This document shows, piece after piece, positions 13,755 to 34,011 of a stretch of 64,000 nucleotides of DNA. Position 1 is the stretch's first letter. Each line of letters opens with the position of its first letter. The position numbers and the translations under genes are program-made. Source of the DNA: an uncultured Gammaproteobacteria bacterium. GTDB taxonomy: Bacteria > Patescibacteriota > Microgenomatia > UBA8517. Location: the NCBI GenBank assembly GCA_964617045.1, contig CAZTVZ010000002.1, forward strand, positions 76,095-140,094. Direction: 5' to 3'. A model generated the notes under the pieces. It saw only the letters and a program-made list of their open reading frames with translations, ran no database searches and was not told where the DNA came from.

Positions 13755-15013
13755 AACGATTTATCGCAATAATTCTTACAATAGGGATACTTTTAAGAGT
13801 AGGCTTGGCTTTCAGCACTTTCCATGCGGATGTTCAGGCTTTTGATTTTGCCGGTAAGGTAATTGCGGAAGGAAATGTCCTAAATTTCTACGATTATTTA
13901 TGGAATCTTCCAAAAGAGGACCCCATTTTGGAAGTATACCCTCCATATTTATTCAACTATCCTCCGATGGTTTATTTTTTCCTTGGAGGAATTTCCAGAT
14001 TAACCACATGGATGGTTGATCCGTTGATTCACAATAACTTTATCTTTGATTTCCCTTCAACTTTGGGAAATATTAATTTGAATATCCTTCTTTTAATGCT
14101 TAAGCTACCGTATTTTCCTTTTGACATTGCTATTGCGTATCTTCTGATGCGCATGTTTAGTGAAGAAAAGAAAAAGAAATGGATTTTCGCTCTTTGGATG
14201 TTTAATCCAATTAACCTATATGCCACTTACATGATGGGGCAATTTGATATTATACCTACGTTTTTGACGATAGCTGCTCTTTATCTTGTCGTTAAGAATA
14301 AAGAAAGGATTGAGAATAGTAATTTACTATTACCGGCAGCACTTCTTGGTCTTGGGGCAGCATTCAAGATATTTCCTGCATTATTTATTGTTCCCCTTGC
14401 AACTTTGAAGAACAGTTGGTTAGACAGAATAAAAATAATCGCCGTTGGTTTCGGAGTTTATTTTATGACTAATTTTCCGTTTATCTTTTCGAAAGGCTTT
14501 CGTGCAACGGCAATGCTTGCTAATCAAACAACAAAAAGTTTGTATGCACAGATACCAATATCGGGCGGAGAATCCATAATCTTGTTTTTGGCTTTGGCGG
14601 TATTTGCATATATTGTGTTTTGGGTTAAAAAGGTTTTACCTGAAGATTTGTGGAAAAGATTTTTTGTAATGATTTTACTGTTTTTTGTATTTACCCATTA
14701 TCATCCACAATGGTTTCTTTGGCTTACTCCATTTTTACTGATTGATTATGTATATTCCGGCAATAAACACCTGGTTCCGATTAAGATATCGCTTTTGAGC
14801 TTTTTAGGACTACTTACATTCTTTGATCCGGGACTAACGGTATGGTTGTTCGCACCCATAAATAAAGCGCTATACGGCATGTCGGATTTATGGACTCAAA
14901 TCGGAATTAAGCCGGACGTTAATTATGCCAGAAGTATTTTGCATACATTATTTGTCGGTTCTGCACTATATTATATGTACATTCATTTCCCAAGAATTAC
15001 GAAAGGCGATTGA
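13751..15013 (+). CDS. Polytopic membrane protein, putative GT-C (DUF2029/GT87-like?)
   Basis: ATGA overlap. 420 aa with about 10 TM segments. First loop 'FHADVQAFDFAGKV...YPPYLFNYPP'. Family assignment is weak. Confidence 0.3.
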   Translation: MKRFIAIILTIGILLRVGLAFSTFHADVQAFDFAGKVIAEGNVLNFYDYLWNLPKEDPILEVYPPYLFNYPPMVYFFLGGISRLTTWMVDPLIHNNFIFDFPSTLGNINLNILLLMLKLPYFPFDIAIAYLLMRMFSEEKKKKWIFALWMFNPINLYATYMMGQFDIIPTFLTIAALYLVVKNKERIENSNLLLPAALLGLGAAFKIFPALFIVPLATLKNSWLDRIKIIAVGFGVYFMTNFPFIFSKGFRATAMLANQTTKSLYAQIPISGGESIILFLALAVFAYIVFWVKKVLPEDLWKRFFVMILLFFVFTHYHPQWFLWLTPFLLIDYVYSGNKHLVPIKISLLSFLGLLTFFDPGLTVWLFAPINKALYGMSDLWTQIGIKPDVNYARSILHTLFVGSALYYMYIHFPRITKGD

Positions 15014-16986
15014 TGAACGTTACATTGGATATCTTAAAATTCTTTGCATTCTTCCTAATAGTATTTTTTATCCCGGGCTATGTACTTACGAGAAATGCGG
15101 ATATTAAATCAAAAGCAGGAAAGATATTTATTGCTACGGTATTGGGGTTTGCACTTTCAACGGTCACTTATTATCTTCACTCGGTTATTTTTTCTCTTTA
15201 CGTGATTATTCCTTCGATTATTTTTATCATTGGCGGGTATTACAAAGATTTCAGGGGTTTAAAACTACCCCAAAAGAAGGGTCACTTAATTATCTTGGGT
15301 TTAATTATTGCCCTTGGAACATTTTTCCAAAACAACTTAACCTTCAGAACGGGTCTTAATTACGAGTATGGAATCGGTTTTTGGAGTGCGCTTGCGCACG
15401 ATGGAGTTTGGCACCAGGCGCTAATTGCTCAGCTTACCAAAAATATTCCTCCTTTGAATCCCGCTTTGTCCGAATTTACGCTTACAAACTATCATTATTT
15501 TTACGATTTGCTTTTGGCGATAGTAAACAAAATTACTTTAATACCGATTGCCGATTTGGTTTATCGTTATTTTCCAATCATATTTTCTTCTCTTCTGGGA
15601 ATAGGAAGTTATCTTTTAACGGTTAAAATATTCAAAAAAGAAAGTGCAGGAATATTCGCAGCATATTTTTCCTATTTCGGAAGTAGCTTTGGGTGGATTG
15701 TCGAACTTTTTAGAGGAGGAGAAATTATTGCGGGCGAATCCAATTTTTGGGCCAACCAACCCGTTTCTCTAAACATCAATCCTCCATTCGCAATTTCACT
15801 AATATTTTTAATTACCGTCCTATATTTGTTTTCTCTTTATGAAGAAAAACGAGATTATTGGTTATTAGGACTTATGGCAATAATTGCCGGGTTAACAATT
15901 GAGTTTAAAGTATACGGAGGTTTAATTATTCTTTCTTCCTTGCTGGTTCTGGCAATTAAGAAGGCTTTATTTGATAAAGACAGGGTTTTACTGGTGTACG
16001 TATTGATTGCAATCGGTATTGCTGCCGGAGTTTTTATTCCCAATAGTAAGGGAAGTGCATCTTTTGTTACCCTTGTTCCTTTTTGGATTATTCACTCGAT
16101 GATAGATATTGTTGATCGGGTTGGTTGGTGGAGATTGTCTCTGTCGAGGACGGTCGGTTTGGCAGAAAAAGATTGGGTTAAATTTATTGGAGCCGAAGGT
16201 GTCGGATTAATACTGTTCATTTTGGGAAATATCGGGACAAGAATGATTGCTTTTGCGGCACTTCTTTTGATACCGGCAAAAGAATGGTTTAAAAACAATT
16301 CTTATCTGATTTTAATAATTGTTTCCGGAGCATCCGTACTTCCAACGTTGTTATTCGTTCAAAAATCAGACCCTTGGAATATTATTCAATTTACATATTA
16401 TTTTCTTTTTATCGCGGCTATTGTTGCCGCTTACGTTCTCTCGATATTTTTCGAAAAATCAAAAAAATGGGTAGTAATCGTTGGGTTGACGCTTTTATTT
16501 GTGATTACCCCGTTGAGTTCTTTGGGTTCATTCAGAAGTGGATTTCAGGGAAACCCGACATATTTGGATAAAGGCGAACTTGAAGCGTTGAATTATCTTA
16601 AAACGCAAGAAGATGGGGTGGTTCTTACATATCCGTACAATCAGTATCTCAGGTACAGTACCGAAAAAAGACCACTTCCTTTGTGGGCCTATCAAACCAG
16701 TGCATATGTATCAGCTTATTCTCAAAAAGTGACATACCTGGAAGATATGATGCAGCAGGGAATACTTGATGCAGACTTTAAAGACAGAATCAAAAAGATG
16801 GAAGACTTTTTTACCAATAATATGCTGCAACAAGGAGAGGACTCCTTTATTAAAGAAGCAAATATCACTTACGTATACATTCCGCAGGATTTAAGAAGAA
16901 TGGTTAACACCAAACTTCCTTCGGCAAAAATAATATTTGAGAACGAAGGGGCGGTAATATTCAAATATGACTTTACAACTAATTAA
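15013..16986 (+). CDS. Polytopic membrane protein, uncharacterized family (paralog A), putative GT-C-like
   Basis: ATG at 15013 (TGATG overlap). Motifs shared with 16967..18973: 'AHDGVWHQA', 'NYHYFYD', 'YRYFPIIFSSLLGIGSY', 'KKESAGI', 'FWANQ', 'QTSAYVSAYSQKVTY'. C-terminal soluble domain. Confidence 0.4.
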   Translation: MNVTLDILKFFAFFLIVFFIPGYVLTRNADIKSKAGKIFIATVLGFALSTVTYYLHSVIFSLYVIIPSIIFIIGGYYKDFRGLKLPQKKGHLIILGLIIALGTFFQNNLTFRTGLNYEYGIGFWSALAHDGVWHQALIAQLTKNIPPLNPALSEFTLTNYHYFYDLLLAIVNKITLIPIADLVYRYFPIIFSSLLGIGSYLLTVKIFKKESAGIFAAYFSYFGSSFGWIVELFRGGEIIAGESNFWANQPVSLNINPPFAISLIFLITVLYLFSLYEEKRDYWLLGLMAIIAGLTIEFKVYGGLIILSSLLVLAIKKALFDKDRVLLVYVLIAIGIAAGVFIPNSKGSASFVTLVPFWIIHSMIDIVDRVGWWRLSLSRTVGLAEKDWVKFIGAEGVGLILFILGNIGTRMIAFAALLLIPAKEWFKNNSYLILIIVSGASVLPTLLFVQKSDPWNIIQFTYYFLFIAAIVAAYVLSIFFEKSKKWVVIVGLTLLFVITPLSSLGSFRSGFQGNPTYLDKGELEALNYLKTQEDGVVLTYPYNQYLRYSTEKRPLPLWAYQTSAYVSAYSQKVTYLEDMMQQGILDADFKDRIKKMEDFFTNNMLQQGEDSFIKEANITYVYIPQDLRRMVNTKLPSAKIIFENEGAVIFKYDFTTN

Positions 16987-18973
16987 CACCCTATTGATGG
17001 GAGCACTTTTCCTGTTTATTTATTTCGGAGTTATATATCCCGTTGGTTATTTAATTGTTAGAAAATTCAACAAATTATTGAAACCGGTTGAGGTTTTTGG
17101 TCTTTCTATGGCAATATCCATCGTTCTATTTATAGGGATAGCGATTTTGTTCGGAATACTTAAAATTCGGTTTCTGGTTCTTCCGTTGGTGGTTGGAATT
17201 ACCCTTGCAACCTATTGGAAATATAGATTCCCTGTTATCGATTCAATTTTGGTTGTATTCAAAAATAAAATTCTGTTACTTCTTTCCGTAGTGGCGATTA
17301 TCGTTCAAGGAATAATCAATTTTCCCAGCGGGTATTTATATGGCAATGGATATCAATTTTGGAGTTCTCAGGGGAACGACGGATTGTGGCATGTTGCGGT
17401 AATGGAAGAAATTAAAAAGAGTATGCCGATAGAAAACCCGATATACTACGGAGAAAAATTATATAACTATCACTATTTGACCGACGTCTTTATGGGTGAA
17501 TTTGCTCGTTTGTTCCCGTCTTTTACCTCACTCGATTTGTACTTCAGATATTTCCCGATTGTTTTCTCTCTTCTTATCAGTATCGGCGCATATGCTTTCG
17601 TGAGTAGATGGAGTAAATCGGAAAGTGCGGGATATTGGGCAATATTTTTTTCCAGTCTTTCCGGCGGCTTTGGGTATATCGTTACGTTAATAAAAGAAGG
17701 AAGATTGTTTGCCGGAGAAACCATTTTCTGGGCTGCTCAGGGAAACACAATAATAGGGAATCCTCCCCATGCAGTTGCTTACGGTTTGCTGGCAATGTTT
17801 TTACTTTCGATCGCAATATATCTGGAAACAAGAAAGAAAGAAATACTGCTTCTTTCCATATTAACCGGTGCTTTTGTTGCTGGTTTTAAAGTATCCGGTG
17901 GATTTATCCTTTCTGCCGGAATAATTGCTGGAGGATTATTTGATTTTCTTGTTAACAGAAAAAAAGAGATGGTATATATTCCTGTGATTGTTGGTTTATT
18001 AAACTTCGTAACACTTAAGCTTATGACCAAGGGTGCAGATAGTTTTTTGATTTTCGAACCATGGTGGTTTGTCAGAACAACGATTGTTGCGGATGGAAGA
18101 GTCGGAATAATAGATATGGAATTAAGAAGGCAACATTATCTTTCTTTGGGAACTTTTAAAGCAACCTTAAGAGTAATACAACTTGAAGTTGAAGCCTTCC
18201 TTATGTTTTTTGTCGGCAATATGAGTACGCGAATAATCGGATTCTTTCTTATCTTTGCAAATGGGTTTAAGGGGGTTGGAAAGTTCTTTAAAGATACGAT
18301 GAGTATCATTTTAATTTCTTCCGCCTTGGCGGGATTGGGAATAGTACTTCTATTTGTTCAGAAGGGAATAGCATACAATCTTATTCAGTTTTTCCAATAC
18401 TCTATTTTGATAATGGGTTTTTTGAGTGCCGCAGCAATGCCAATTATTTTGAAAAGGATTAAACCAAAAATAATTAAAACTGCATTTGCTTTTTTGATAA
18501 TAATAATTTCCGTACCGACTGTTATTGGTAATGTTGTCGAATTTTACGGAAAAGGACGATCAGCATTGGCCGTCGTCAGCAACAGCGAAATTGAAGCCTT
18601 AGAATATTTAAAAACATCAACACCAAATGATTCGGTAATTCTTACATACCCATTCGATGGAAATGCCCATTATGGGTATAAAGAACAACCATGGCCGATA
18701 TCAGTGTGGTACTCGACAGCTTACGTTTCTGCACTTTCCTCTAGAAAAACATATTTCAGCAATGAAGGGCAGGTTGATATATTAGGTATTCCAATTAAAG
18801 AAAGAAGAGAAGAAGTACTGGCCTTTTTCAATGACCCGAAGATTGATAGAAAACAGTATCTGAATGATAAAGGAATAGATTATGTTTACGTTCTTAAAAA
18901 AGATTATCCCAAACAGTTGGATTTGGAAATATATTATGAGAGTAGAGACGTTATAATTTACTGGAATATATGA
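16967..18973 (+). CDS. Polytopic membrane protein, uncharacterized family (paralog B), putative GT-C-like
   Basis: 'GNDGLWHVA', 'NYHYLTD', 'FRYFPIVFSLLISIGAY', 'KSESAGY', 'FWAAQ', 'STAYVSALSSRKTY'. Tandem paralog of 15013..16986. Confidence 0.4.
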   Translation: MTLQLINTLLMGALFLFIYFGVIYPVGYLIVRKFNKLLKPVEVFGLSMAISIVLFIGIAILFGILKIRFLVLPLVVGITLATYWKYRFPVIDSILVVFKNKILLLLSVVAIIVQGIINFPSGYLYGNGYQFWSSQGNDGLWHVAVMEEIKKSMPIENPIYYGEKLYNYHYLTDVFMGEFARLFPSFTSLDLYFRYFPIVFSLLISIGAYAFVSRWSKSESAGYWAIFFSSLSGGFGYIVTLIKEGRLFAGETIFWAAQGNTIIGNPPHAVAYGLLAMFLLSIAIYLETRKKEILLLSILTGAFVAGFKVSGGFILSAGIIAGGLFDFLVNRKKEMVYIPVIVGLLNFVTLKLMTKGADSFLIFEPWWFVRTTIVADGRVGIIDMELRRQHYLSLGTFKATLRVIQLEVEAFLMFFVGNMSTRIIGFFLIFANGFKGVGKFFKDTMSIILISSALAGLGIVLLFVQKGIAYNLIQFFQYSILIMGFLSAAAMPIILKRIKPKIIKTAFAFLIIIISVPTVIGNVVEFYGKGRSALAVVSNSEIEALEYLKTSTPNDSVILTYPFDGNAHYGYKEQPWPISVWYSTAYVSALSSRKTYFSNEGQVDILGIPIKERREEVLAFFNDPKIDRKQYLNDKGIDYVYVLKKDYPKQLDLEIYYESRDVIIYWNI

Positions 18974-20574
18974 GAAAAGCTTTCTTGCTGGGGATAATAT
19001 TGTTGTTTGCTTTTATAGTAAGAATCGTGGGGATAAACGAAGTTCCTTTGTATGGCGATGAACTTACAATTACCCAGGATGCATATTCTATTCTTCAAAC
19101 AGGTAAAGACGTTACCGGAAAAACACTACCGCTAACATTTTCAATGGGTGCCGGCAGGCCCGGAGGATATGTTTATTTTTCTGTTCCTTTTGTTTCACTT
19201 TTTGGACCAGGCGCGTATGGAGTTAGAATGCTCTCAATTATTTCCGGAGTGGGTATTGTTCTTGCAGGATATTTATTGAGTAGAAAACTCTTTTCAGAAA
19301 AAATTGCGATAATTACGGCATTTTTAACTGCGATATCCCCTTGGGCAATTAATTTAAGTAGGGGAGGATATGAGGCGAACTTTGCCCTCATGCTTTGCAT
19401 GTTTGCTATATACGCTTTTCTAGAGGCAAAGGGGAAACCGATTTGTTATCCGATATCGGCAGCACTATTGGGTCTTACGATTTTTACTTATCCCACTTTC
19501 AAATTGACGATTCCCCTATTCATCATCCCCCTTCTTTGGTATGTGGGAGGAATTAAAGAAATATTTGTTAAAAAGAATATCTTCTATCTTTTGGTTTCAA
19601 TTATTATCGGCATAAGCTTTATCGGATTGTCGATAAATGAAACGTTTAACAACAATTCCGAAGAAAGATTCGGCAGGATTAATATTTTTTCCTCTGAGGA
19701 TATCCAGAGAAACATAACGGAGGAAGTAATAAACGAAAGGAGAATTGTGGATGTATCATATGCTGACAGGTTGTTCCACAACAAGGTCATCAAAAATGTC
19801 GAGTATTTTATTGAGAATTACTTGGATAACTTTTCGATTCAATATCTTTTTACGAAGGGAGACGGTAATCCTCGGCACAACATGACCCAGACTGGTGTCC
19901 TGTTTACGGTAGAAATATTAACACTATTGCTTGGTCTGTATGCAATTTCGCAAAAAGAGAAAAAGGGAATGATAATGCTTCTTTCGTGGGTTTTGATTAC
20001 TCCGATTGCAACTTCCATTGTCGGGGTTCCCCACTCTTTAAGAAACGCATTTATGTTTCCGGCTCTTTCAATGATATCTGCATATGGTGTTTTTCTGTTA
20101 AGCAGTAACAAGAGAAAAATAGTCTTTACTCTGTTTGTGCTTGGACTATTTGTTCAGTTTATTTTCCAAATGGAGAGGTTGTATCTGGTTTCGGCAAAGG
20201 AATATGAAAAATCTTGGTCTTATCCTGCAAAAAGAGCTTCGGAAATTGCCGCATCGGAAACAGATAGATACGACCATGTAATTCTTTCGGACCGAATCGA
20301 TTCAGTGGAGTATGCGTATCCGGTATATGCAAGGGTGGATTCCAAGTTGGTTCAGGAGCAAAATCTAAACACTTCGTTAATCGGAAGCCTTCCTTTAAAA
20401 ACTTACGGAAATGTAAGCATTGGAAGAATTCCCGAAGGAGAATTGCCGAAATTTATCGATTCTATTCCGGGATCCGTTTTGTTTATCGGAAGTGAATACT
20501 ACGATATTAAATCGGGAGAAGTAATTAAATTTACAGATCCTATGCTAAATCTGTCGATTGTGCGAAAAGAATAA
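18970..20574 (+). CDS. GT-C glycosyltransferase, PMT_2/GT39-like (protein O-mannosyltransferase-like)
   Basis: ATGA overlap. First loop 'PLYGDELTITQDAYSILQTGKD' (DE motif), 'GVRMLSIISGVGIVLAGYLLSRKLF'. Shares the C-terminal 'FTKGDGNPRH' motif with 21410.. and 23053... Confidence 0.55.
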   Translation: MRKAFLLGIILLFAFIVRIVGINEVPLYGDELTITQDAYSILQTGKDVTGKTLPLTFSMGAGRPGGYVYFSVPFVSLFGPGAYGVRMLSIISGVGIVLAGYLLSRKLFSEKIAIITAFLTAISPWAINLSRGGYEANFALMLCMFAIYAFLEAKGKPICYPISAALLGLTIFTYPTFKLTIPLFIIPLLWYVGGIKEIFVKKNIFYLLVSIIIGISFIGLSINETFNNNSEERFGRINIFSSEDIQRNITEEVINERRIVDVSYADRLFHNKVIKNVEYFIENYLDNFSIQYLFTKGDGNPRHNMTQTGVLFTVEILTLLLGLYAISQKEKKGMIMLLSWVLITPIATSIVGVPHSLRNAFMFPALSMISAYGVFLLSSNKRKIVFTLFVLGLFVQFIFQMERLYLVSAKEYEKSWSYPAKRASEIAASETDRYDHVILSDRIDSVEYAYPVYARVDSKLVQEQNLNTSLIGSLPLKTYGNVSIGRIPEGELPKFIDSIPGSVLFIGSEYYDIKSGEVIKFTDPMLNLSIVRKE

Positions 20575-20596
20575 CAATCTGTTATTATCTTCCCAA

Positions 20597-21337
20597 ATGA
20601 AGAGAAACTCCAAAGTTGTTATAGTAATGCCGGCTTATAATGCCCAAAAAACGGTTAGGAATACTTTCAAAGAAATTCCTCCCAAATTCAGGAAACACAT
20701 AATACTTGTTGATGATAATTCAAAAGATTCCACTGTTAATGTTGCGAAGAAGTTGGGGATTAAAGTCTTTGAACATACCAACAATATCGGTTACGGCGGT
20801 AATCAAAAGACTTGTTATTGGGAGGCTCTGAAATTGAATCCGGATGTAATTGTAATGCTTCACCCTGATTATCAATACGACGCAACCCTTATTGAAGATC
20901 TGATAGACCCTATCCTTAAAGGAAAACGTGATTATATGTTTGGCAGCAGAATAAATAGTCGAGGACAAGCACTCAAAGGCGGAATGCCAATGCTAAAATA
21001 CATACTCAACCGAATTGATACCATTATCGAAAATATACTGTTGGGAGTTAATTTCAGTGAACATTTTTCCGGTTTTCGGGCGTATTCCAAAAAACTTCTT
21101 AAAAGAGTTCCTTTTCAGAGATTTTCCAACGATTTTGTTTTTGATCAACAAATTAAAGTGTCCGCAATCAGTTATGGCATGAAAATCGGAGAAATTCCTA
21201 TTCCTACGCGATATCACGAAAAATCTTCTTCAATTAATTATCTTAAGGGTGCAAAGTTTTTAATTGAAACTTATATTGTTATTTTCCTCTTTATGCTTCA
21301 CAAATCGGGAATACTAAAGTCAAGGTTGTTTAAATGA
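20597..21337 (+). CDS. GT2 polyprenol-phosphate glycosyltransferase (DPM1/GtrB-like sugar-phosphate-lipid synthase)
   Basis: ATG at 20597 (the track's GTG at 20558 lies inside the upstream gene). 'VVIVMPAYNAQKT', 'ILVDDNSKDST', 'FGSR', 'SGFRAYSKKLL'. No C-terminal TM domain. Confidence 0.6.
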   Translation: MKRNSKVVIVMPAYNAQKTVRNTFKEIPPKFRKHIILVDDNSKDSTVNVAKKLGIKVFEHTNNIGYGGNQKTCYWEALKLNPDVIVMLHPDYQYDATLIEDLIDPILKGKRDYMFGSRINSRGQALKGGMPMLKYILNRIDTIIENILLGVNFSEHFSGFRAYSKKLLKRVPFQRFSNDFVFDQQIKVSAISYGMKIGEIPIPTRYHEKSSSINYLKGAKFLIETYIVIFLFMLHKSGILKSRLFK

Positions 21338-21409
21338 TTAATTACGAGATACTCTTGAAAACACCATTTCTCAGCCATTTAGAGCCTTTTTGTATTAAAA
21401 TAGAATAGT

Positions 21410-23056
21410 ATGAAATCTAAACTGATTCAGTGGTTGCTTGTTACGGCAATTCTGCTTATTGGTTTTGCTGCAAGATTTTACAAAGTAACCGAAGTTCCTC
21501 CGTCATTGAATTGGGATGAGACATCTATTGCATACAACGCTTATTCGATTCTAACCTCAGGCAAGGACGAGTGGGGAGTTAGTTTCCCTTTAAATTTCAA
21601 ATCATACGGTGAATACAAATTACCGGTGCAAATATATGCTTCTATTCCTGGTATTTTTGTATTTGGACTTAATGAACTGGGGGTAAGAATAACTCCAATT
21701 GTTTACGGCACCCTCACCATTCTTCTCTTGTATTTTTTGGCGAAAGAACTGTTCGATAAAAAAGTTGCCTTGATATCCTCTTTCTTTTTAGCAATATCAC
21801 CCTGGCACATACAACTTACCAGGGCTTCGTTTGAATCCTCGTTTTCCGTATTATGGGTTCTGCTCGGACTACTTCTTCTTGTCAAAGGATTGAAAAAACC
21901 GTGGCTGTGGGTTTTATCCGTAATCCCATTTGCAATATCCGTTTATACATATAACAGTGCAAGAATATTCACACCCCTTATCATAATTGCTTTTGGTATT
22001 ATCTATTTCAAAAAAGTAATTCCCCATGTCAAACAAATTGTTGTATCGGGATTGTTGTTTTTTGGTTTAATGGCTCCAATTATTCTTTCGATATTCACGG
22101 GAGAAGCAGCTGCCAGATATAAGTTGGTTAGTGTTACGGACGAGAAGGGTCTAATACCGAGAATCGAACAGCAAAGAAACCTTTCAACATATCCCAAAGT
22201 GATAACAAATTTAATTCACAACAGATACACATACGTTGGTTATTATTCGATCAGAAACTATGTTTCTCATTTCGCTCCTGATTTCTTGTTTATTTCAGGG
22301 GCCGGTCATAAACAACATCATCCACAAAAAGTCGGAGAAATGTTTTTGATTCAAGCACCATTTGTAATCTGGGGAATCGTGCAACTGATAAGAAAGAAAA
22401 ATAAATACAACGGATTATTATTTGCTTGGTTATTGTTAACCTTTGTTCCCGTGTCTTTAACAAACGATAGTATTCCTCACGCGCTAAGAACCGTAATCGC
22501 AGCACCTATTTACCAAATATTTACAGCAGTTGGAATTGTTGAGCTTTTCAATTTATTAAAAGGCAAACGATTAATAGTTGCCTCTCTGATGTTGGGAATA
22601 GCAACGATTATTAGTTTCTATCTTTATTACCACCATTTAATTGTCGATTATCCCAGATTGTATTCCCAAGCTTGGCAATATGGCTATAAACAGGTTGTGG
22701 AATATATATCCGATCATGAAGACGAATATGATTTGGTGGTGTTTTCCAGATCCTATGGTGAGCCGCACATGTTTACATTATTTTTTAAGATGTACGACCC
22801 CGAAAGATATCAGAAAGCGGATAAAGTGATTCAGGTGGATCCTAACGATTGGATTAAAATATACAGTTTTGATAAATACAGGTTCCCGGATCTGAGCGAA
22901 CCGGGAACAATGTACAAAGATCTTGTTAAAGAAAACCCGGGTAAAGAGATATTATTTATCGGTAAACACGAAGACTTTGTTGACGGTCAAAAAGTACTTC
23001 TTAACGTTAAATTTTTGGATGGGCAGGATGCCTTCGACATCGTGGACAATAAATGA
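21410..23056 (+). CDS. GT-C glycosyltransferase, PMT_2/GT39-like (paralog 1)
   Basis: 'VPPSLNWDETSIAYNAYSILTSGKDEWG' DE motif, 'FGLNELGVR', 'ISGAGHKQHHP'. About 50% identical over the N-terminus to 23053..24666. Confidence 0.55.
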   Translation: MKSKLIQWLLVTAILLIGFAARFYKVTEVPPSLNWDETSIAYNAYSILTSGKDEWGVSFPLNFKSYGEYKLPVQIYASIPGIFVFGLNELGVRITPIVYGTLTILLLYFLAKELFDKKVALISSFFLAISPWHIQLTRASFESSFSVLWVLLGLLLLVKGLKKPWLWVLSVIPFAISVYTYNSARIFTPLIIIAFGIIYFKKVIPHVKQIVVSGLLFFGLMAPIILSIFTGEAAARYKLVSVTDEKGLIPRIEQQRNLSTYPKVITNLIHNRYTYVGYYSIRNYVSHFAPDFLFISGAGHKQHHPQKVGEMFLIQAPFVIWGIVQLIRKKNKYNGLLFAWLLLTFVPVSLTNDSIPHALRTVIAAPIYQIFTAVGIVELFNLLKGKRLIVASLMLGIATIISFYLYYHHLIVDYPRLYSQAWQYGYKQVVEYISDHEDEYDLVVFSRSYGEPHMFTLFFKMYDPERYQKADKVIQVDPNDWIKIYSFDKYRFPDLSEPGTMYKDLVKENPGKEILFIGKHEDFVDGQKVLLNVKFLDGQDAFDIVDNK

Positions 23057-24666
23057 AAATTATTTCGAAAATCATTTTACTTTTGATCATTCTTTCGGGA
23101 ATATTTTTGAGATTTTATAAATTGGAAAGTGTTCCCCCGTCGTTATCATGGGATGAAGCATCTTTTTCTTATAATGCATACACAATTGCGAACTGGGGCA
23201 AAGACGAATGGGGAAAAGTACTTCCCTTTGCTTTCAAATCGTTTGGAGAGTACAAAAACCCGGTTGATATATATATCGCAGTACCCTTCATTAAAGTATT
23301 TGGCCTTAACGAATTGGGAACCAGATTCCCGGCGGCATTGTTTGGAGCGGTAAACATCTTACTAGTCTATTTATTGGGAAAAAGACTTTTCAAAAACGAA
23401 GTCGTTGGTCTTTTTGCTGCATTTTCTTTTGCCATTTCACCATATAACATTCAATTTTCCAGACACCATCATGAACTTAATATTGCTTTGTTTTTCTATC
23501 TCCTTGGTCTTTGGTCTATCATCGGTGCAATTAATAAAGACAAGGTAAAAGGAATGATCTTGGGTTTTGTCAGTTTGGCTATTCCTCTTCTAACATATAA
23601 TGCCGCCAAGATAATTATTCCTCTTACGGTGTTGGGACTCTCAATTATATATTTCAAATATTTTATTAAACATTTAAAGTATTCGTTCGTTGCGGGAATA
23701 ATAGTGCTTGGCATATTCCTCTTTACTTTTTTTGGAGGAGGTTTGTCTGGCAGATCCAGATTATCCCAGGTTGCATTTAAACAGACAGATATCGAACAAA
23801 CATATTTATACAAGAAAACAAAAATTAGAAGGTTGGGACAAATAGAACTTGTTTTCAAGCAATATCCTTTGCATTTTTCAAGCGAATATCTTCTTGAAAG
23901 AGGAGACAAAAACTATAGACATTCAACAGGTGTGATAGGTGAGTATTATAAAATGGACGTTTTTTTGATGCTTCTCGGATTGGGTTATCTGGGATACCTG
24001 ATAATAAAAAAGAAATCGAAAGAAGCACTCCTTTTGTTGGGGGTTATTCTTATTGCCCCTCTTCCTTCTTCTATTGCCAGTGAGGCACCACATGCAGGAA
24101 GAACTATGTTTATGAACGGTTCTTGGCATATCCTGGTCGGTTTGGGATTTATGTTTCTTGTTTCCCAATTAAAACAAAAATTGGTTAAATGGTTGGTTAT
24201 CGGTCTACTGTTGGCAGGTTATGGATTTCAAATGTACGGATATCTGGATTTTCTTTTCAACGATTATGCGAAAAAATATGCAATTGATTGGCAGTACGGA
24301 ATGAAACAGATCGTCGAAACAATTAAAAAACAGGATCCCGAATCCGTACAAAGCGTATATATGACAATAGACAGATGTCAGCCACACATATTCTTTTTGT
24401 ATTATCTCGGTACCGACGTAAATTCGTACAATAAAACAATGATTGTAAATGAAGGACCGAAAAGCGGATGCGAAATAATTAATTCTTTCGAAAAATACAA
24501 TTTCGGAACATGGGATTTCGTGTGGTCCAGACCAATTCAGGGTGTTTATTATGTTTTAACACCAAATGAATATTCGGGACTTGCACACATCAACGATTTC
24601 ACCGTTATTGAAAAGATTCAATATCCTGACGGATCGGATGCATATTTTATCGTTACTTCCTACTGA
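23053..24666 (+). CDS. GT-C glycosyltransferase, PMT_2/GT39-like (paralog 2)
   Basis: ATGA overlap. 'VPPSLSWDEASFSYNAYTIANWGKDEWG', 'FGLNELGTR', 'ERGDKNYRHS'. Confidence 0.55.
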   Translation: MKIISKIILLLIILSGIFLRFYKLESVPPSLSWDEASFSYNAYTIANWGKDEWGKVLPFAFKSFGEYKNPVDIYIAVPFIKVFGLNELGTRFPAALFGAVNILLVYLLGKRLFKNEVVGLFAAFSFAISPYNIQFSRHHHELNIALFFYLLGLWSIIGAINKDKVKGMILGFVSLAIPLLTYNAAKIIIPLTVLGLSIIYFKYFIKHLKYSFVAGIIVLGIFLFTFFGGGLSGRSRLSQVAFKQTDIEQTYLYKKTKIRRLGQIELVFKQYPLHFSSEYLLERGDKNYRHSTGVIGEYYKMDVFLMLLGLGYLGYLIIKKKSKEALLLLGVILIAPLPSSIASEAPHAGRTMFMNGSWHILVGLGFMFLVSQLKQKLVKWLVIGLLLAGYGFQMYGYLDFLFNDYAKKYAIDWQYGMKQIVETIKKQDPESVQSVYMTIDRCQPHIFFLYYLGTDVNSYNKTMIVNEGPKSGCEIINSFEKYNFGTWDFVWSRPIQGVYYVLTPNEYSGLAHINDFTVIEKIQYPDGSDAYFIVTSY

Positions 24667-24707
24667 CAATCTTCCAATTCCATAATATTGTCGTATAATT
24701 GGCCATA

Positions 24708-25973
24708 ATGAAAGTTGCAATAATAGGCGCCGGCTTTGTTGGATTAAGTGCTGCCTTAAATTTGTTGGAAAAAGATGTAGATGTAACATTGTTTGAGAAG
24801 GACTCAATTCCCGGAGGTTTGGCCAACGGATTTAAGGAACCGGAATGGAGATGGAGTTTGGAAAAACATTATCATCATATATTTACTTCTGACAAAATTG
24901 TTCTTGATCTGGCAAATAAAGTAGGACAGAGAATAATATTCAATACACCCGAAACACTCTCCTTTTACGAAGGGGAAGCATTCAGATTGGACAGTCCAAT
25001 GTCTCTACTCGAATTTGGAAAGATTAGTTTTGCCGATAGGGTTAGAACTGGAATTATTCTTCTTTATCTAAAAATTACTTCCGATTGGAAAAAACTGGAA
25101 AGTATTACCGCCGAGAGTTTTATCACAAAATGGATGGGTGAAAAATCGTGGGAAATATTGTGGAAACCACTCTTTGTAAAAAAGTTCGGTAAAGAATATA
25201 AAAAAATACCGGCATCCTGGTTTTGGGCAAGAATTAAAAAAAGAAGTCAGTCATTGGGATATCCGGAAGGAGGGTTTGATTCTTTTTCGGGGAAAATTGC
25301 CGATAAGATAATAAAGAAAAAGGGAGTAATTAAATATCGTGAATTTGTTAAATCCATTAAACCCCACAAAGAAGGGTTTTCGATTGAAACGAACAAGAAT
25401 AAATACTCTTTTGACAAGGTAATATGTACTTTGCCCTCTTCATTGTTTGTAAAAATGGTAAAAGGATTGCCACAGAAATACACAGACAAACTGTTGGGGT
25501 TAAAAGGAATAGGTGCAGTTAACCTAATAATTGAACTTGAGAAACCGTTTATGAAAGGATACTGGTTGAGCATCAACGATATGGATATTCCTTTCCTTTG
25601 TGTCGTGGAACAAACAAATTACATGGAAAGAAGGTATTACGATGGATCAAGGATTTTATATGTGGGGAATTATTTACCTGCAAATCATGAATACTTCGAT
25701 TTAAATGCAAGGCAAATATTAAGTAGATACATGAAGGGGTTGAAACAAATAAATCCCGATTTCAACTACGACTGGATTAAAAGCTTAAAAGTTTTTAAGG
25801 CACCATATGCACAACCGCTGGTGGAAAAAAATTATTCGAAGAAGATACCGGATCTGAAGACTCCCTTAAGGAATCTGTTCTTGGCAAATATCGAACAGGT
25901 GTATCCCTGGGATAGGGGAACCAATTATTCCGTTGAACTTGGTTCTAAAGTTGCCGAGCTTACCCTGGAATAA
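24708..25973 (+). CDS. FAD/NAD(P)-binding oxidoreductase, UDP-galactopyranose-mutase-like/amine-oxidase-like flavoprotein
   Basis: ATG at 24708 gives 'MKVAIIGAGFVGLSAA' (Rossmann GxGxxG); the track's TTG at 24699 is less likely. 'EKD...GGLANGF' and 'HYHHIFTSD' resemble the Glf 'GAHIFHTND' region. Confidence 0.5.
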   Translation: MKVAIIGAGFVGLSAALNLLEKDVDVTLFEKDSIPGGLANGFKEPEWRWSLEKHYHHIFTSDKIVLDLANKVGQRIIFNTPETLSFYEGEAFRLDSPMSLLEFGKISFADRVRTGIILLYLKITSDWKKLESITAESFITKWMGEKSWEILWKPLFVKKFGKEYKKIPASWFWARIKKRSQSLGYPEGGFDSFSGKIADKIIKKKGVIKYREFVKSIKPHKEGFSIETNKNKYSFDKVICTLPSSLFVKMVKGLPQKYTDKLLGLKGIGAVNLIIELEKPFMKGYWLSINDMDIPFLCVVEQTNYMERRYYDGSRILYVGNYLPANHEYFDLNARQILSRYMKGLKQINPDFNYDWIKSLKVFKAPYAQPLVEKNYSKKIPDLKTPLRNLFLANIEQVYPWDRGTNYSVELGSKVAELTLE

Positions 25974-25987
25974 TATACTTCATATAT

Positions 25988-26854
25988 ATGGCCAAGATTT
26001 CGGTTGTTCTTGCTACCCGTAATGAAGAATCTAATATTGCGGGATGTTTGAATTCGGTTAAAGATTTTGCTTCGGAAATGATCGTTGTAGACGAGGGATC
26101 TTCAGATAAAACGGTAGATATCGCCAAATCTTTGGGTGCAAAAGTTGAAATTGTACGTCACGAAACGATTTTCCACAAAACAAAACAAAAAGCCCTTGAT
26201 CTTGCTACCGGTGAGTGGATACTTCAAATGGACGCAGACGAACGGGTAAGCAGCAGGTTGGGTAAAGAGATCAAACAAATAGTACACATGTCAGAAGAAG
26301 AACTGAATGATTATCAGGACGAAGTATTAAACAACAAACTATTTAGAAAACATCAAGCATTGATTGCGAAGAGAGATGGAAAGATAGGGACAGAAAGTGG
26401 TCCTTATTATGCATTTTTTGTTCCAAGACTAAATTATTTTTTGGGTAAATATTTGAGATACGGTGGGGTATACCCGGATGGTGTAATCAGACTTGTAAGA
26501 AAAGGAAAAGCATTCTTTCCGGCCAAGGATGTTCATGAACAAATGACCGTATTGGGCAAAGTGGGTTGGTTGAAAAACGATTTGATTCATATGGCCGACC
26601 CGACATTCAAAAGATATCTTGAAAGAAACTCGAGATATGTAAATCTTCTTTCGCTGGAGCTAAAAAGCAACAAGGTAAAAAAGAACCTGTTTACTTTCTT
26701 GGATTATATGTTTATCAAACCTGCTTATTGGTTAATATTGACTCAAATCAGACACAAAGGAATATTGGATGGTTGGCAGGGTATGGTGTTTTCTTTTTTC
26801 TCGGCATTAAGGTTTCCGAAAGCATATATTAAATACTTAAAAATCAATGATTAA
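25988..26854 (+). CDS. Glycosyltransferase family 2 (WaaE-like)
   Basis: 'ISVVLATRNEESNI', 'MIVVDEGSSDKT', 'QMDADERV', 'GGVYPDGVIRLVRK'. Confidence 0.75.
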   Translation: MAKISVVLATRNEESNIAGCLNSVKDFASEMIVVDEGSSDKTVDIAKSLGAKVEIVRHETIFHKTKQKALDLATGEWILQMDADERVSSRLGKEIKQIVHMSEEELNDYQDEVLNNKLFRKHQALIAKRDGKIGTESGPYYAFFVPRLNYFLGKYLRYGGVYPDGVIRLVRKGKAFFPAKDVHEQMTVLGKVGWLKNDLIHMADPTFKRYLERNSRYVNLLSLELKSNKVKKNLFTFLDYMFIKPAYWLILTQIRHKGILDGWQGMVFSFFSALRFPKAYIKYLKIND

Positions 26855-27893
26855 AGTTGCTATAGATTCAGGTCCCTTAAAAAGCGGAGATTCTGTGAGG
26901 GGTATTGGATTTCATACAAAACTTCTGACAGAACATATGACCAAAGTTAAAGATGTGAGATTCGATATCGTTGATGTCAGAAAAGAAAACCTCGATTCCT
27001 ATGATTTAATCCACTACCAGAAATTCCACCCGTATTTCCTGAGCATTCCATTAACTAAGAAGAAAAAGAGTGTGATCACGATACACGATCTTATATACCT
27101 CCTTTATCCCGATAAATATCCTTCGGGTATTAGAGGAAGAATAATATACGAAATGCAAAAGATATTGGTTAAAAGAATGGATGCAATAATAACCATATCG
27201 GAAACGTCTAAGAAGGATATTGTAAGATTTCTTGGAATTCCGGCTGAAAAGATATTCCCCGTTCATTTGGCGGCAAGGGATACGTTTAAGGTAATAACCA
27301 ATCAAAAATATCTCGATAGTGTAAAGAAGAAATATGCTTTACCGGAGAAATTTGTTTTGTATGTTGGTGATGTTAATTACAATAAAAATTTACCTACTTT
27401 ATGCAAAGCCGTAAAAGCAGCAAAGACAACGCTTGTAATTGTAGGTAAACAAGCAGTAAGTAAAGATTTTGATAAGAATCATCCGGAGAACAAATCCTTG
27501 GTTAAACTTCTTAAAGAGTACGGAAACGACAAGGCGATTAAAAGATTGGGGTTTGTAGACGACGAAGATCTTGTTGCAATATATAACTTGGCAACCGTAT
27601 ATGTACAACCCTCGTTCTATGAGGGATTTGGACTCCCACTTTTGGAGGCTTTCGCATGCAAGCTGCCCGTTATTGCATCAAAAATACAAGCGCATGTGGA
27701 AATCGGAGGAGAAGCTCCTTTGTATGTTGATCCGAAAAAATATGAAGATTTTTCGGAAAAGATAAGAATGGTAATGAACGACGAGAAATTAAGAAAAGAT
27801 ATGATATCAAAAGGTCTTGATAAAGTTTCGGAATACTCATGGGACAAAACTGCAAATGAAACGGCTGAAGTCTATCGCAAAATCACTCAATGA
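26847..27893 (+). CDS. Glycosyltransferase family 4
   Basis: 'YEGFGLPLLEAFACKLPVIAS' GT4 motif. 8-nt overlap upstream. Confidence 0.7.
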   Translation: MIKVAIDSGPLKSGDSVRGIGFHTKLLTEHMTKVKDVRFDIVDVRKENLDSYDLIHYQKFHPYFLSIPLTKKKKSVITIHDLIYLLYPDKYPSGIRGRIIYEMQKILVKRMDAIITISETSKKDIVRFLGIPAEKIFPVHLAARDTFKVITNQKYLDSVKKKYALPEKFVLYVGDVNYNKNLPTLCKAVKAAKTTLVIVGKQAVSKDFDKNHPENKSLVKLLKEYGNDKAIKRLGFVDDEDLVAIYNLATVYVQPSFYEGFGLPLLEAFACKLPVIASKIQAHVEIGGEAPLYVDPKKYEDFSEKIRMVMNDEKLRKDMISKGLDKVSEYSWDKTANETAEVYRKITQ

Positions 27894-29055: not shown

Positions 29056-29712
29056 ATGAAAATATATATTGTAGTTCCGGCTTACAACGAAGGAAAACGT
29101 ATCGGAAAAGTTCTTAAAGAACTAAAAGCTCAAAGACTTCCCGTTATTGTTGTTGACGATGGCTCCAAAGATAATACCTACAAAGAAGCTTTAAAAAGTA
29201 AATATCTTGTATTAAAACACAGAATTAATTTGGGTAAGGGTGCTGCAATGAAAACAGGTGCAATGGCAGCGTTCAAATTGGGAGCTGATGCCGTTATCTT
29301 TATGGATTCGGATGGACAACACAAGGTTGAAGATTTGCCAAATTTTACTAAAGCCTTGAATACAAAGACCGATATTGTTTTTGGTTCACGAAATCTGGGT
29401 TTAAAAATGCCTTTTGTAAGATTTGCTGGGAATAAGGTTGCTTCAGTTTTTGTAAATATTCTATTTGGAATTTATGTCTCCGACTTGGTGTGTGGTTTTA
29501 GGGCAATTACGAAAAAGGCGTTTACCAAAATAATGTGGGAATCTACGGGATATGGAGTCGAAACCGAAATGGTAATTCGTACCGCAAAGTCGGGTTTAAT
29601 GCATTGTGAAGTACCCGTTAAGACGGTATACTATGACCAGTATAAGGGTGTTAGCATTATGGATGCTTTTGACATCCTTTTTAGTGTTTTAAGATGGAGA
29701 ATTAAATTATGA
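29056..29712 (+). CDS. GT2 polyprenol-phosphate glycosyltransferase (DPM1/GtrB-like)
   Basis: 'IYIVVPAYNEGKRI', 'VIVVDDGSKDNT', 'FMDSDGQH', 'FGSRNLG', 'CGFRAITKKAF'. Confidence 0.65.
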   Translation: MKIYIVVPAYNEGKRIGKVLKELKAQRLPVIVVDDGSKDNTYKEALKSKYLVLKHRINLGKGAAMKTGAMAAFKLGADAVIFMDSDGQHKVEDLPNFTKALNTKTDIVFGSRNLGLKMPFVRFAGNKVASVFVNILFGIYVSDLVCGFRAITKKAFTKIMWESTGYGVETEMVIRTAKSGLMHCEVPVKTVYYDQYKGVSIMDAFDILFSVLRWRIKL

Positions 29713-32286: not shown

Positions 32287-32292
32287 AGATAT

Positions 32293-34010: not shown

Positions 34011-34011
34011 T

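Follow-up and report, generated by a model that had tools for sequence, protein, structure and literature searches.

Bacterial GT-C glycosyltransferases of the PMT_2 family with a known acceptor (GacL, GtlB, GttB, GtcC, CsdD/F and GtsC) glycosylate LTA, WTA or wall polysaccharides and are mostly encoded beside their own GT-A synthase (PMC8035078). The structural top matches described for these enzymes are the same as those found for the locus presented here (PMC8035078). For the DUF2304 proteins GacJ and Rv3632 a role was described in bioRxiv 10.1101/180810.

In the window, the whole 64-kb stretch of DNA that was analysed, three GT-C proteins (A, B and C) are encoded together with one embedded GT2 (GT2e). 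On balance, these four genes are probably a slice of a large conserved envelope-glycan assembly cluster of Microgenomates (CPR), here of an ultrasmall bacterium.

Gene organization

The order GT-C, GT2, GT-C, GT-C, claimed previously from the sequence, was confirmed, and all four ORFs were found in place. GT-C A (18970-20574; plus strand, as all genes mentioned in the following) is a polytopic membrane glycosyltransferase of 534 aa with a match to PF13231 PMT_2 at E 5.9e-11. It is followed by GT2e (20597-21337; 246 aa; PF00535, E 8.7e-19), B (21410-23056; 548 aa; PF13231, E 1.6e-11; PF02366, 29 bits) and C (23053-24666; 537 aa; PF13231, E 6.6e-12; PF02366, 28 bits). The stop of B and the start of C overlap (ATGA). 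The ATG at 20597 is the most likely start of GT2e. A mechanical start at TTG 20558 is disfavoured, since gene callers on three independent contigs choose the ATG.

The description of these genes as a self-contained unit did not hold. The ATG of A and the stop codon of the gene before it (16967-18973) overlap, this gene is translationally coupled to A, and a second synthase pair and about 10 more GT-Cs share the co-oriented cluster. The upstream gene encodes a membrane protein of 668 aa with about 12 TM helices, for which no Pfam family was matched. It is a paralog of the protein encoded at 15010-16986, and its homologs adjoin the A gene in most relatives. Likewise, the trio proved to be an arbitrary cut: about 14 GT-C genes, including GT87 and YfhO-like types, are present in the window, and further paralog types of the family (D and E) occur in relatives. 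The entire window is a glycan cluster on one strand and also carries two Wzx proteins, a Wzy_C-like protein, about 20 GT2/GT4 enzymes, methyltransferases, an acyltransferase and ManC. An initiating phosphoglycosyltransferase, an LCP ligase or a GtrA-type flippase was not recognised within the 64 kb, and no promoter or terminator signals above shuffled controls were detected.

Further upstream, a YfhO/PTPS_related GT-C fusion of 1094 aa (10470-13754) consists of two modules, which are separate genes in relatives. The adjacent GT87-family GT-C (13751-15013; PF09594, E 5.4e-9) has orthologs in relatives with up to 64% identity. Downstream of C an FAD/amine-oxidase-like flavoprotein is encoded (24699-25973; PF01593, E 2.3e-22). 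It is weakly UDP-galactopyranose-mutase-like, with PDB UGM matches at about E 6e-4, and a counterpart near B was found in only one of 62 species representatives. A GT2 (25988-26854; PF00535), a GT4 (26847-27893; PF00534, E 1.3e-33) and an 8-TM protein (27817-29055), whose orthologs match PF04188 Mannosyl_trans2 (PIG-V-like GT-C), follow. The next gene encodes a second GT2 resembling polyprenyl-phosphate sugar synthases (29056-29712; PF00535, E 3e-23). This protein is a paralog of GT2e (31% identity, blastp E 2.5e-28) with orthologs of 52-63% identity. The DUF2304 small membrane protein encoded beside it (29709-30053; PF10066, E 6.9e-18) is, by sequence, its predicted activator partner of the GacJ/Rv3632 type.

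Conservation in relatives

Gene neighbourhoods were counted within 10 kb around B in 62 Microgenomates species representatives. A core block B-D-C-GT2-GT4-GT-C is kept in 52-60 of these species. B is the most conserved member, with orthologs of 50-60% identity across Woesebacteria, Daviesbacteria and Shapirobacteria. Orthologs of C were present downstream of B in 56/62 species and orthologs of A within 10 kb of B in 31/62. The GT2 at 25988-26854, which directly follows the conserved B-D-C block, has an ortholog downstream of B in 60/62 species; the GT4 was found in 55 and the PIG-V-like protein in 52. Relatives hold up to eight paralogous GT-Cs, and their clusters additionally carry MptA_B, PIG-V-like and DUF2079 GT-Cs. 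The separate ortholog series (B 50-60%, A 41-49% and C 35-46% identity), compared with 25-33% between paralogs, fit fixed, non-redundant steps.

GT2e was detected within 10 kb of B in 19/62 species, always upstream of B. In the other 43 it is absent from this range; hence A, B and C are regarded as candidate users of its product. Homologs of GT2e in relatives are 70-78% identical, and all five that were looked up lie inside PMT_2 GT-C arrays.

The GT-C proteins

The proposed paralogy of the three GT-Cs was verified, with identities of 29% for A-B (E 1e-52), 29% for A-C (about E 2e-36) and 32% for B-C (E 6.5e-77). Also correct was the Asp-Glu dyad in outer loop 1 (YGDE in A, NWDE in B and SWDE in C), which falls in a single aligned column. 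The column N34 W35 D36 E37 is invariant among 38 B orthologs, and in a set of 18 family members conservation of the dyad reaches at least 90%. A block 'GD.N.RH', described as C-terminal and common to all three, does exist in a later loop of A (FTKGDGNPRH) and C (LERGDKNYRH). It is located near the middle of the roughly 540-residue proteins (about aa 293-304), and B and all its orthologs carry GAGHKQHH or GAPHRQHH instead.

In the HMM search A, B and C, like all 18 family members, matched PMT_2. The gathering score of PF02366 was passed by 12/18 members, including B and C. Beyond the Pfam clan level, no sequence match of this family to solved or curated families was detectable.

In B, about 11 membrane helices are combined with an alpha/beta domain at the C-terminus (about aa 440-548). 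Its AF2 model (pLDDT 83, pTM 0.85) showed a generic GT-C fold in Foldseek, with probability 1.0 to AglB, STT3, PglB, ArnT, ALG12, ALG9, Pmt4 and AftD; AftB, AftA and EmbC were matched as well. The highest target-normalised TM-score was obtained with ALG12 (0.64). ArnT was second only to ALG12 as whole-chain match (TMq 0.58, TMt 0.59). OST subunits and Pmt4 were found at E 1e-8 to 1e-5, and Pmt1/2 matched partially (TM about 0.3, E 0.04-0.2). The similarity to Pmt1/2/4 was no better than that to ArnT, OST or ALG enzymes.

The embedded GT2

GT2e is a predicted polyprenyl-phosphate sugar synthase, judged by its best sequence and predicted-fold matches, namely archaeal DPMS, ArnC and GtrB. Its earlier placement in the DPM1/GtrB/ArnC class is in agreement with NCBIfam, PDB, Foldseek and hhalign. 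The best NCBIfam matches were AglJ, PpgS and Dol-P-hexose transferase, every one under the cut-off. The sole significant PDB sequence match was the DPMS of P. furiosus (5mlz), with E 1.4e-6 by sequence and 2.1e-8 by profile. With the AF2 model (pLDDT 85) DPMS (TMq 0.71), ArnC and GtrB were the leading Foldseek matches; soluble GpgS-type GT-A enzymes gave similar E-values. A probability of 95% was obtained with hhalign against E. coli ArnC. In this protein a GT-A domain is joined by a single short hydrophobic helix at the C-terminus. It has none of the TM helices present in GtrB, ArnC and PfDPMS, and an invariant HPD is found where DPMS and ArnC carry DAD.

Function of the locus

We consider it somewhat more probable than the contrary that the locus is a multi-component transmembrane glycosylation line with an envelope glycan as acceptor. 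The claim that a lipid-linked sugar is made inside and used outside by the GT-Cs is well supported by the GT2 class. This logic of donor synthase and GT-C transferase is reasonable because the GT-Cs carry the acidic dyad in loop 1 and the GT2 belongs to the DPM1/GtrB/ArnC class. GT2e, soluble and membrane-peripheral, would load polyprenyl phosphate with a hexose-type sugar at the cytoplasmic face, using a nucleotide sugar as donor, as homology and fold suggest. The lipid-linked monosaccharide would then be flipped, and two Wzx-type flippases are encoded in the window. On the outer face A, B and C may each take the polyprenyl-phosphate sugar and attach it at a different position or linkage, with the Asp-Glu of loop 1 as putative catalytic or metal-binding centre. 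From the context, the acceptor would be a glycan and not a polypeptide; candidates are a polysaccharide of the cell wall, a lipoglycan or a lipid-linked precursor after flipping. Such a scheme would be akin to GacI/J/L, CsbB/YfhO, Csd, the PPM/DPA-dependent GT-Cs of mycobacteria or ALG3/9/12 of the ER. The fold likeness extends to protein-modifying GT-Cs (OST, Pmt4) as well, so that a protein acceptor keeps a low probability.

According to the sequence-only reading, GT2e makes polyprenyl-phosphate mannose, and A, B and C are PMT-like enzymes, each specialised for its acceptor, which attach sugar to Ser/Thr residues in secreted, S-layer or pilin proteins. Pilin glycosylation of the TfpW type by a GT-C and the Pmt1/2/4 subfamilies are possible analogues. 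The loop-1 dyad, the PF02366 scores, the Foldseek matches to OST subunits and Pmt4, and ManC, which serves GDP-mannose, are in line with this, and the three paralog lines are ancient, like the eukaryotic PMT subfamilies. Nevertheless, we regard protein O-mannosylation as unlikely. The dyad and both HMMs are not diagnostic, since they are common to ArnT: the E. coli enzyme scores 211 bits with PF02366 and 37 bits with PF13231, and its PDETRY aligns with the WDE of the trio. Membership in GT39 was not borne out. Even with the threshold relaxed to E 0.1, the PMT_4TMC module was detected in none of the 18 family members. The bacterial Pmt equivalog gave 17.8 bits, with the cut-off at 800, and neither sequence nor profile search gave a PDB match to Pmt. 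The fold matches to Pmt1/2 are partial, and the C-terminal soluble domain of these proteins is absent from the PMT architecture (PMC12331936). Furthermore, the genes lie inside a polysaccharide-type cluster and are translationally coupled to it, and characterised bacterial pairs of PMT_2 and GT2 modify teichoic acids or cell-wall polysaccharides (PMC8035078).

That the head group of a membrane lipid or glycolipid is modified in the manner of ArnT, as a lipid A-like or glycolipid decoration, is very improbable. ArnT is a near-best whole-chain fold match and shares the TM core and C-terminal outer domain with the family, JGI labels homologs as 'ArnT-like', and a GT2 adjoining a GT-C recalls the layout of arnC/arnT. 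However, hhalign against E. coli ArnT gave a probability of 19%, for the N-terminus alone, no NCBIfam ArnT match was obtained, and genes of the arnA/B/D type are lacking in the window. In general, CPR bacteria are taken to be monoderms that lack LPS. The choice between ArnT-type and PMT-like, on which the sequence-only reading was to be judged, ended with neither, given the missing arn context and the low hhalign probability. Somewhat less improbable, but still doubtful, is an incidental adjacency, with GT2e as an ordinary cytoplasmic GT2 extending a polyprenyl-diphosphate-linked oligosaccharide and the donors for the GT-Cs coming from elsewhere, e.g. from the GT2 and DUF2304 pair (29056-30053). 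That pair is a recognised synthase-activator combination, and GT2e is missing near B in most species. The lack of TM helices, the HPD instead of DxD, the NCBIfam scores under every equivalog cut-off and the GpgS-type matches point in the same direction. On the other side, sequence, profile and fold consistently led to polyprenyl-phosphate sugar synthases, GT2e is related to the PpgS-like GT2 at 29056, and the homologs looked up all lie inside GT-C arrays. The high conservation of GT2e suggests a core donor-forming step.

Comparison with known systems

The GT39 Pmts (yeast Pmt1/2/4, M. tuberculosis Pmt) with DPM1/Ppm1 resemble the locus in the GT-C fold, the loop-1 dyad and the dependence on a DPM1-class synthase. 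They differ in that the family described here has neither PMT_4TMC nor a MIR domain nor a Pmt equivalog match and possesses a C-terminal soluble domain, and in that its fold is less similar to theirs than to ArnT or ALG12. With the lipid A aminoarabinose pathway of ArnC/ArnT (GT2/GT83) it shares a GT2 synthase near a GT-C with loop-1 dyad and C-terminal outer domain, but Ara4N biosynthesis genes are absent and the profile similarity is very weak. ALG3/ALG9/ALG12 of the ER lumen are also paralogous GT-Cs, each adding one sugar at a defined site of a flipped lipid-linked glycan, and these mannosyltransferases depend on a single lipid-monophosphate donor, Dol-P-Man. They are eukaryotic, and the likeness is at fold level only, with 13-14% identity.

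The assembly of LM, LAM and arabinogalactan in Corynebacteriales (PimE/GT87, MptA/B, AftA-D, Emb; PpgS-Rv3632-Rv3779) likewise employs serial GT-Cs, an extracytoplasmic glycan and polyprenyl-phosphate monosaccharide donors. Genes for GT87, MptA_B-family proteins and a DUF2304-partnered synthase occur in this cluster or its orthologs, and AftD, AftB, AftA and EmbC were among the Foldseek matches. In contrast to these systems, whose likeness to A, B and C is restricted to the fold, the genes described here form a single co-oriented cluster and belong to a CPR bacterium with about 1 Mb of DNA, not to an actinobacterium.

The transmembrane glycosylation systems of monoderms (GacI/GacJ/GacK/GacL, CsbB-GtcA-YfhO, CsdA-F and GtsABC; PMC8035078) have in common with the locus a GT-A/GT2 synthase adjoining a PMT_2- or YfhO-type GT-C, a Wzx-type flippase, a DUF2304 partner for the second synthase and the structural top matches AftD, ArnT, STT3, AglB and PglB (PMC8035078). 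These systems have one GT-C, whereas here one synthase, with HPD for DxD and devoid of TM helices, is located among three paralogous GT-Cs, a number that rises to eight in relatives.

Results

The four open reading frames described in the sequence-only reading were recovered at the same positions, all on the forward strand. The GT-C paralogs A (534 aa), B (548 aa) and C (537 aa) are encoded at 18970-20574, 21410-23056 and 23053-24666. For GT2e, the GT2 glycosyltransferase embedded between A and B, the mechanical ORF spans 20558-21337; the ATG at 20597 is its most likely start (246 aa), as gene callers chose it on three independent metagenome contigs with the identical locus.

The paralogy of A, B and C was borne out, with identities of 29% for A and B (E 1e-52), 29% for A and C (E 2e-36) and 32% for B and C (E 6.5e-77). 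All three match PF13231 PMT_2 (E 6e-11, 2e-11 and 7e-12 for A, B and C), as do 18 of 18 members of their family. The proposed loop-1 DE motif is present in each (YGDE in A, NWDE in B, SWDE in C), where it opens outer loop 1 and falls into one aligned column. Across 38 B orthologs this column does not vary (N34-W35-D36-E37), and its conservation in the 18-member family alignment is 90% or more. The second block, 'GD.N.RH', had been described as common to the three proteins and C-terminal. It was found in A (GDGNPRH) and C (GDKNYRH), while B and all B orthologs carry GAGHKQHH or GAPHRQHH at this position, and it lies mid-protein, ahead of the last group of membrane helices. Further family-wide invariants are a second Asp in loop 1 (GKD), an R...E pair (SRxxxE) and the Arg in PHALR.

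AlphaFold2, given 38 orthologs, yielded a confident model of B (pLDDT 83, pTM 0.85). In it, the protein has roughly 11 membrane helices, its C-terminus (approximately aa 440-548) forms an alpha/beta domain, and the first outer-loop helix begins with the DE dyad. Simple hydropathy under-counts the helices (7-9 vs about 11 in the model) and was left out of topology claims. A Foldseek comparison of the model with the PDB gave 25 matches at E<=1e-3, all of them GT-C enzymes with probability 1.0. AglB, STT3 and PglB were matched with E 1e-8 to 1e-6, the best E-values being those of OST subunits. ArnT followed with E 2e-6 (TMq/TMt 0.58/0.59), ALG12 reached TMq/TMt of 0.57/0.64 and Pmt4 0.46/0.50; ALG9, AftD, AftB, AftA and EmbC were weaker matches. 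Pmt1/Pmt2 were matched partially, with E 0.04 to 0.2 and TM of about 0.3. Pmt1/2/4 are hence not favoured over other GT-C families by the fold of B, ArnT and ALG12 having the better TM values in this comparison.

Membership of A, B and C in the PMT/GT39 family, as put forward in the sequence-only reading, was not upheld. The PMT family is defined by PF02366 and PF16192 (PMT_4TMC), which together form the 11-TM PMT core (PMC12331936). PF02366, a model that is not PMT-specific and also matches E. coli ArnT, was matched by 12 of 18 family members; B (29.2 bits) and C (28.1 bits) lie slightly over its gathering score of 22.7, and no match was obtained for A in the Pfam scan. PMT_4TMC was absent from A, B and C at E<=0.01 and from 18 of 18 family members at E<=0.1. 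The NCBIfam model for bacterial Pmt (NF058602) was matched by C alone, with 17.8 bits against a cut-off of 800. When B was searched against the PDB with phmmer and as a profile, neither Pmt nor ArnT was found, and the sole match was a non-significant STT3 segment (E 0.14). Characteristic features of MtPMT are an Rx2Y motif in loop 5 and a WW-like hairpin in EL4 (PMC12331936). As far as alignment and model allow a comparison, the family has an invariant Arg in PHALR (R360 of B) but no x2Y spacing, and the model of B shows no beta-hairpin within residues 230-312.

As control for the PMT models, ArnT of E. coli, an enzyme modifying lipid A, was scanned. Its scores were 211 bits for PF02366 'PMT' and 37 bits for PF13231 'PMT_2', and in a profile alignment its PDETRY was placed against the WDE of the family. 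Thus, neither the names PMT and PMT_2 nor the DE dyad hold information on the acceptor. A classification as ArnT-type (GT83) lipid A modifiers was also rejected. The family profile aligned to E. coli ArnT with an hhalign probability of 18.7% over 138 N-terminal columns, no NCBIfam ArnT match was obtained for A, B and C, and Pfam annotation of the 57 window ORFs revealed no arn-type genes (arnA/B/D, ArnE/F flippase). The automatic names of homologs are in conflict, with 'glycosyltransferase family 39 protein' at NCBI vs 'ArnT-like' at JGI; as the control with E. coli ArnT shows, such names tell nothing about the acceptor. By sequence and predicted fold, A, B and C belong to the GT-C superfamily (GT-C_A fold) and are assignable neither to GT39 nor to GT83; their family is uncharacterised.

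GT2e had been proposed as a DPM1-class synthase, and this proposal held. The protein matches PF00535, and its top NCBIfam models, AglJ (5.8e-22), PpgS (6.6e-14) and Dol-P-hexose transferase (1.7e-11), are all polyprenyl-phosphate sugar synthases. It falls into no curated equivalog, membership of which would fix the sugar specificity; its scores stay far below the thresholds, with 78 bits vs a cut-off of 325 for AglJ and 52 vs 370 for PpgS. Pyrococcus DPMS was the sole notable PDB match (E 1.4e-6 by sequence, 2.1e-8 by profile), and E. coli ArnC was aligned with 95% probability by hhalign. With the GT2e model (pLDDT 85), DPMS, ArnC and GtrB occupied Foldseek ranks 1-5. Soluble GpgS-type enzymes followed at ranks 6-8 with slightly weaker E-values, above some GtrB/ArnC chains; since they are so close behind, the fold ranking supports the synthase class rather than proving it. 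An HPD that is invariant in the GT2e family (MLHPDYQYD, alignment A3) is located at the position of the DAD (DxD) of DPMS and ArnC. A TM pair is missing from GT2e, whose only hydrophobic helix is short and C-terminal (aa 215-236). Taken with the predicted fold, the profile matches identify GT2e as a polyprenyl-phosphate sugar synthase-type enzyme among GT-C transferases. The gene of ManC (GDP-mannose) is found 41 kb downstream.

The window is AT-rich (GC about 0.36) and is tiled by 57 ORFs of 150 aa or more, every one of them on the forward strand. All 2-kb bins show positive GC skew, and the cumulative sum rises monotonically. A strand composition disparity, described as unusual, was reported for a complete Microgenomates genome (PMC7143001). 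The TGA of an upstream gene for a 668-aa membrane protein is overlapped by the ATG of A (atATGAg), and the stop of B is overlapped by the ATG of C in the same manner. Gaps at the four-gene locus are only 22, 72 and 32 nt long, the first two lying between A and GT2e and between GT2e and B. In a consensus scan of 13-31 kb, promoter- and terminator-like sites were no commoner than in shuffled controls, and none framed A-GT2e-B-C. Hence, the four genes do not form a delimited sub-operon, and the self-contained unit of the sequence-only reading was given up. Two paralogous membrane proteins of about 660 aa (30% identity, 12-13 TM, no Pfam family) are encoded at 15010-16986 and 16967-18973; in most Microgenomates, homologs of the latter neighbour the A gene, as a rule in opposite orientation.

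Judged by its gene content, the entire 64 kb is one glycan cluster. It comprises two Wzx-type flippase genes (7-1311 and 41325-42602), a gene for a Wzy_C-like protein, about 20 GT2/GT4 genes, and genes for a hexapeptide acyltransferase, ManC and five methyltransferases. About 14 genes are of GT-C type. Apart from A, B and C, these include PMT_2-like GT-Cs at 4941, 38961, 45130, 49575, 56567 and, weakly, 30829, a PTPS/YfhO-like GT-C at 8792, a two-module PTPS/YfhO fusion at 10470-13754 (1094 aa), a GT87 GT-C starting at 13751 and the two family-less 12-13-TM proteins starting at 15010 and 16967, all on the forward strand. No GtrA family match was found among window ORFs of at least 80 aa. Both modules of the fusion are YfhO/PTPS_related and correspond to adjacent separate genes in relatives (540 and 527 aa in L004). 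The fusion is probably real, as gene calling on another, independent contig from a metagenome (L001) also gave one fused product, of 1093 aa.

Another GT2 of synthase type (29056-29712, 218 aa) shares 31% identity with GT2e; the DUF2304 gene behind it overlaps it by 4 nt. The DUF2304 proteins GacJ and Rv3632 stimulate the synthases GacI and PpgS (bioRxiv 10.1101/180810), and the pair at 29056-30053 shows the same pairing as GacI/GacJ and PpgS/Rv3632.

Some further genes of the window deserve mention. The gene directly after C (24699-25973) encodes an FAD/amine-oxidase-like flavoprotein that weakly resembles UDP-galactopyranose mutase. It was located near B in only one of 62 species representatives; in L004, L006 and L008, the three relatives inspected gene by gene, a short-chain dehydrogenase is found near the conserved GT2 instead. 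GC drops to 0.285-0.30 at 32000-40000, compared with 0.35-0.38 elsewhere in the window, and the proteins at 33051, 34012, 36088 and 36810 in this stretch have no Pfam family; this part of the cluster may be variable or acquired. A 531-aa protein (43515-45110) contains two tandem class-I SAM methyltransferase domains. The Wzy_C-like protein (55213-56682, 489 aa) is polytopic, and its match to Wzy_C (O-antigen ligase) is sub-threshold; candidate roles are those of a polymerase, a ligase or a PglL-type O-oligosaccharyltransferase, so that polymer ligation or protein glycosylation might also proceed through it.

By the names of its homologs, the organism belongs to the Microgenomates group of CPR/Patescibacteria, close to Woesebacteria. 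For the conservation of the cluster, the window proteins were mapped onto 80 species-representative loci around B orthologs; the counts rest on the 62 of them that reach 8 kb or more beyond B in both directions. Orthologs of the GT2 at 25988 (60/62) and of C (56/62) were found downstream of B, and orthologs of the GT4 at 26847 (55/62) and of the PIG-V-like GT-C at 27817 (52/62) near it. Between B and C an extra paralog, D, is present in 52 of the 62 loci (about 450-520 aa, approximately 30% identical to B). The window lacks D, and B and C overlap directly, as seen in comparison with L004, L006, L008, L010 and L012. A orthologs lie within 10 kb of B in 31/62 and the GT2 plus DUF2304 pair in 14/62 species (orthologs 52-63% identical); this pair is recurrent, not universal, in Microgenomates clusters. 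On average, five genes of the A/B/C family were counted per locus, and the relatives' clusters also hold MptA_B-family, DUF2079 and Mannosyl_trans2 GT-Cs. From the first three relatives GT2e could be taken for a lineage-specific insertion. This was rejected, as homologs of 70-78% identity occur across Microgenomates, five of five that were looked up independently lie inside PMT_2 GT-C arrays, and GT2e is found within 10 kb of B, always upstream, in 19/62 species. Two small conserved ORFs of the relatives, one for a TM-anchored beta-rich protein and one for a small polytopic membrane protein, were considered as acceptor proteins and discarded; neither is Ser/Thr/Pro-rich.

Orthologs share 50-60% identity for B, 41-49% for A and 35-46% for C, compared with 25-33% between paralogs. 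Since the orthologs form separate series with identities above the between-paralog level, the duplications are, as far as sequences tell, old and the copies non-redundant. In a comparison across Woesebacteria and Daviesbacteria, B (55-60% identity) and GT2e (70-78%) rank with the better conserved proteins. The family seems to be typical of Microgenomates.

Discussion

Genomes of CPR/Patescibacteria are minimal, yet at least 64 kb are spent here on one glycan cluster. For a genome size of 0.8-1 Mb, taken from complete relatives (0.80-1.08 Mb), this share is estimated at 6-8%. In the literature on CPR/Patescibacteria with GT-C, GT39, PMT or glycosylation, no relevant study of these genes was found. 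By analogy, the logic of the cluster is already known from multi-component transmembrane glycosylation or GT-C assembly lines; noteworthy are the conservation of the family and the share of a tiny genome given to the cluster. The layout of multi-component transmembrane glycosylation, with a synthase gene adjoining GT-C genes, is present at the locus and recurs in relatives. The lipid-linked sugar would be flipped, for which the Wzx-type proteins are the only candidates, and would then serve as substrate for A, B and C on the outer face.

As putative acceptor of A, B and C we favour a glycan, i.e. a wall polysaccharide, a lipoglycan or a flipped lipid-linked precursor. Their genes lie within a polysaccharide-type cluster, to which they are linked by translational coupling, and are accompanied by GT87/PimE-like, MptA_B, PIG-V-like and YfhO-like GT-Cs, families which in known systems act on glycans or glycolipids. 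A protein acceptor, the central idea of the sequence-only reading, appears unlikely to us; OST and Pmt4 among the fold matches speak for it, and the Wzy_C-like gene could provide a PglL-type route. Those PMT_2 GT-Cs which are paired with a GT-A synthase and whose acceptor is known all glycosylate LTA, WTA or wall polysaccharides (table in PMC8035078), and their structural top matches are the same as for B, which argues for the glycan acceptor. Several ancient, separately conserved paralogs would likewise fit sequential, position-specific steps on a glycan, proposed here as in ALG3/9/12 or the mycobacterial Mpt/Aft enzymes.

Beyond the acceptor, we suggest with considerable reserve that Microgenomates, even with genomes of about 1 Mb, keep a lineage-wide, conserved extracytoplasmic assembly line building a defined lipoglycan or wall glycan. 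It would consist of at least five ancient paralogous GT-Cs of the uncharacterised family (A, B, D, C and a further type, E, known from relatives) together with GT87-, MptA_B-, PIG-V- and YfhO-like enzymes, and two polyprenyl-phosphate sugar synthases would serve as feeders. The identity of the product would reveal the surface make-up of these uncultivated episymbionts. If the proposal is true, the product is a core component of their envelope and possibly involved in host attachment. Functionally, it would then be the counterpart of mycobacterial lipomannan/arabinogalactan or of the products of the ER lumenal ALG steps.
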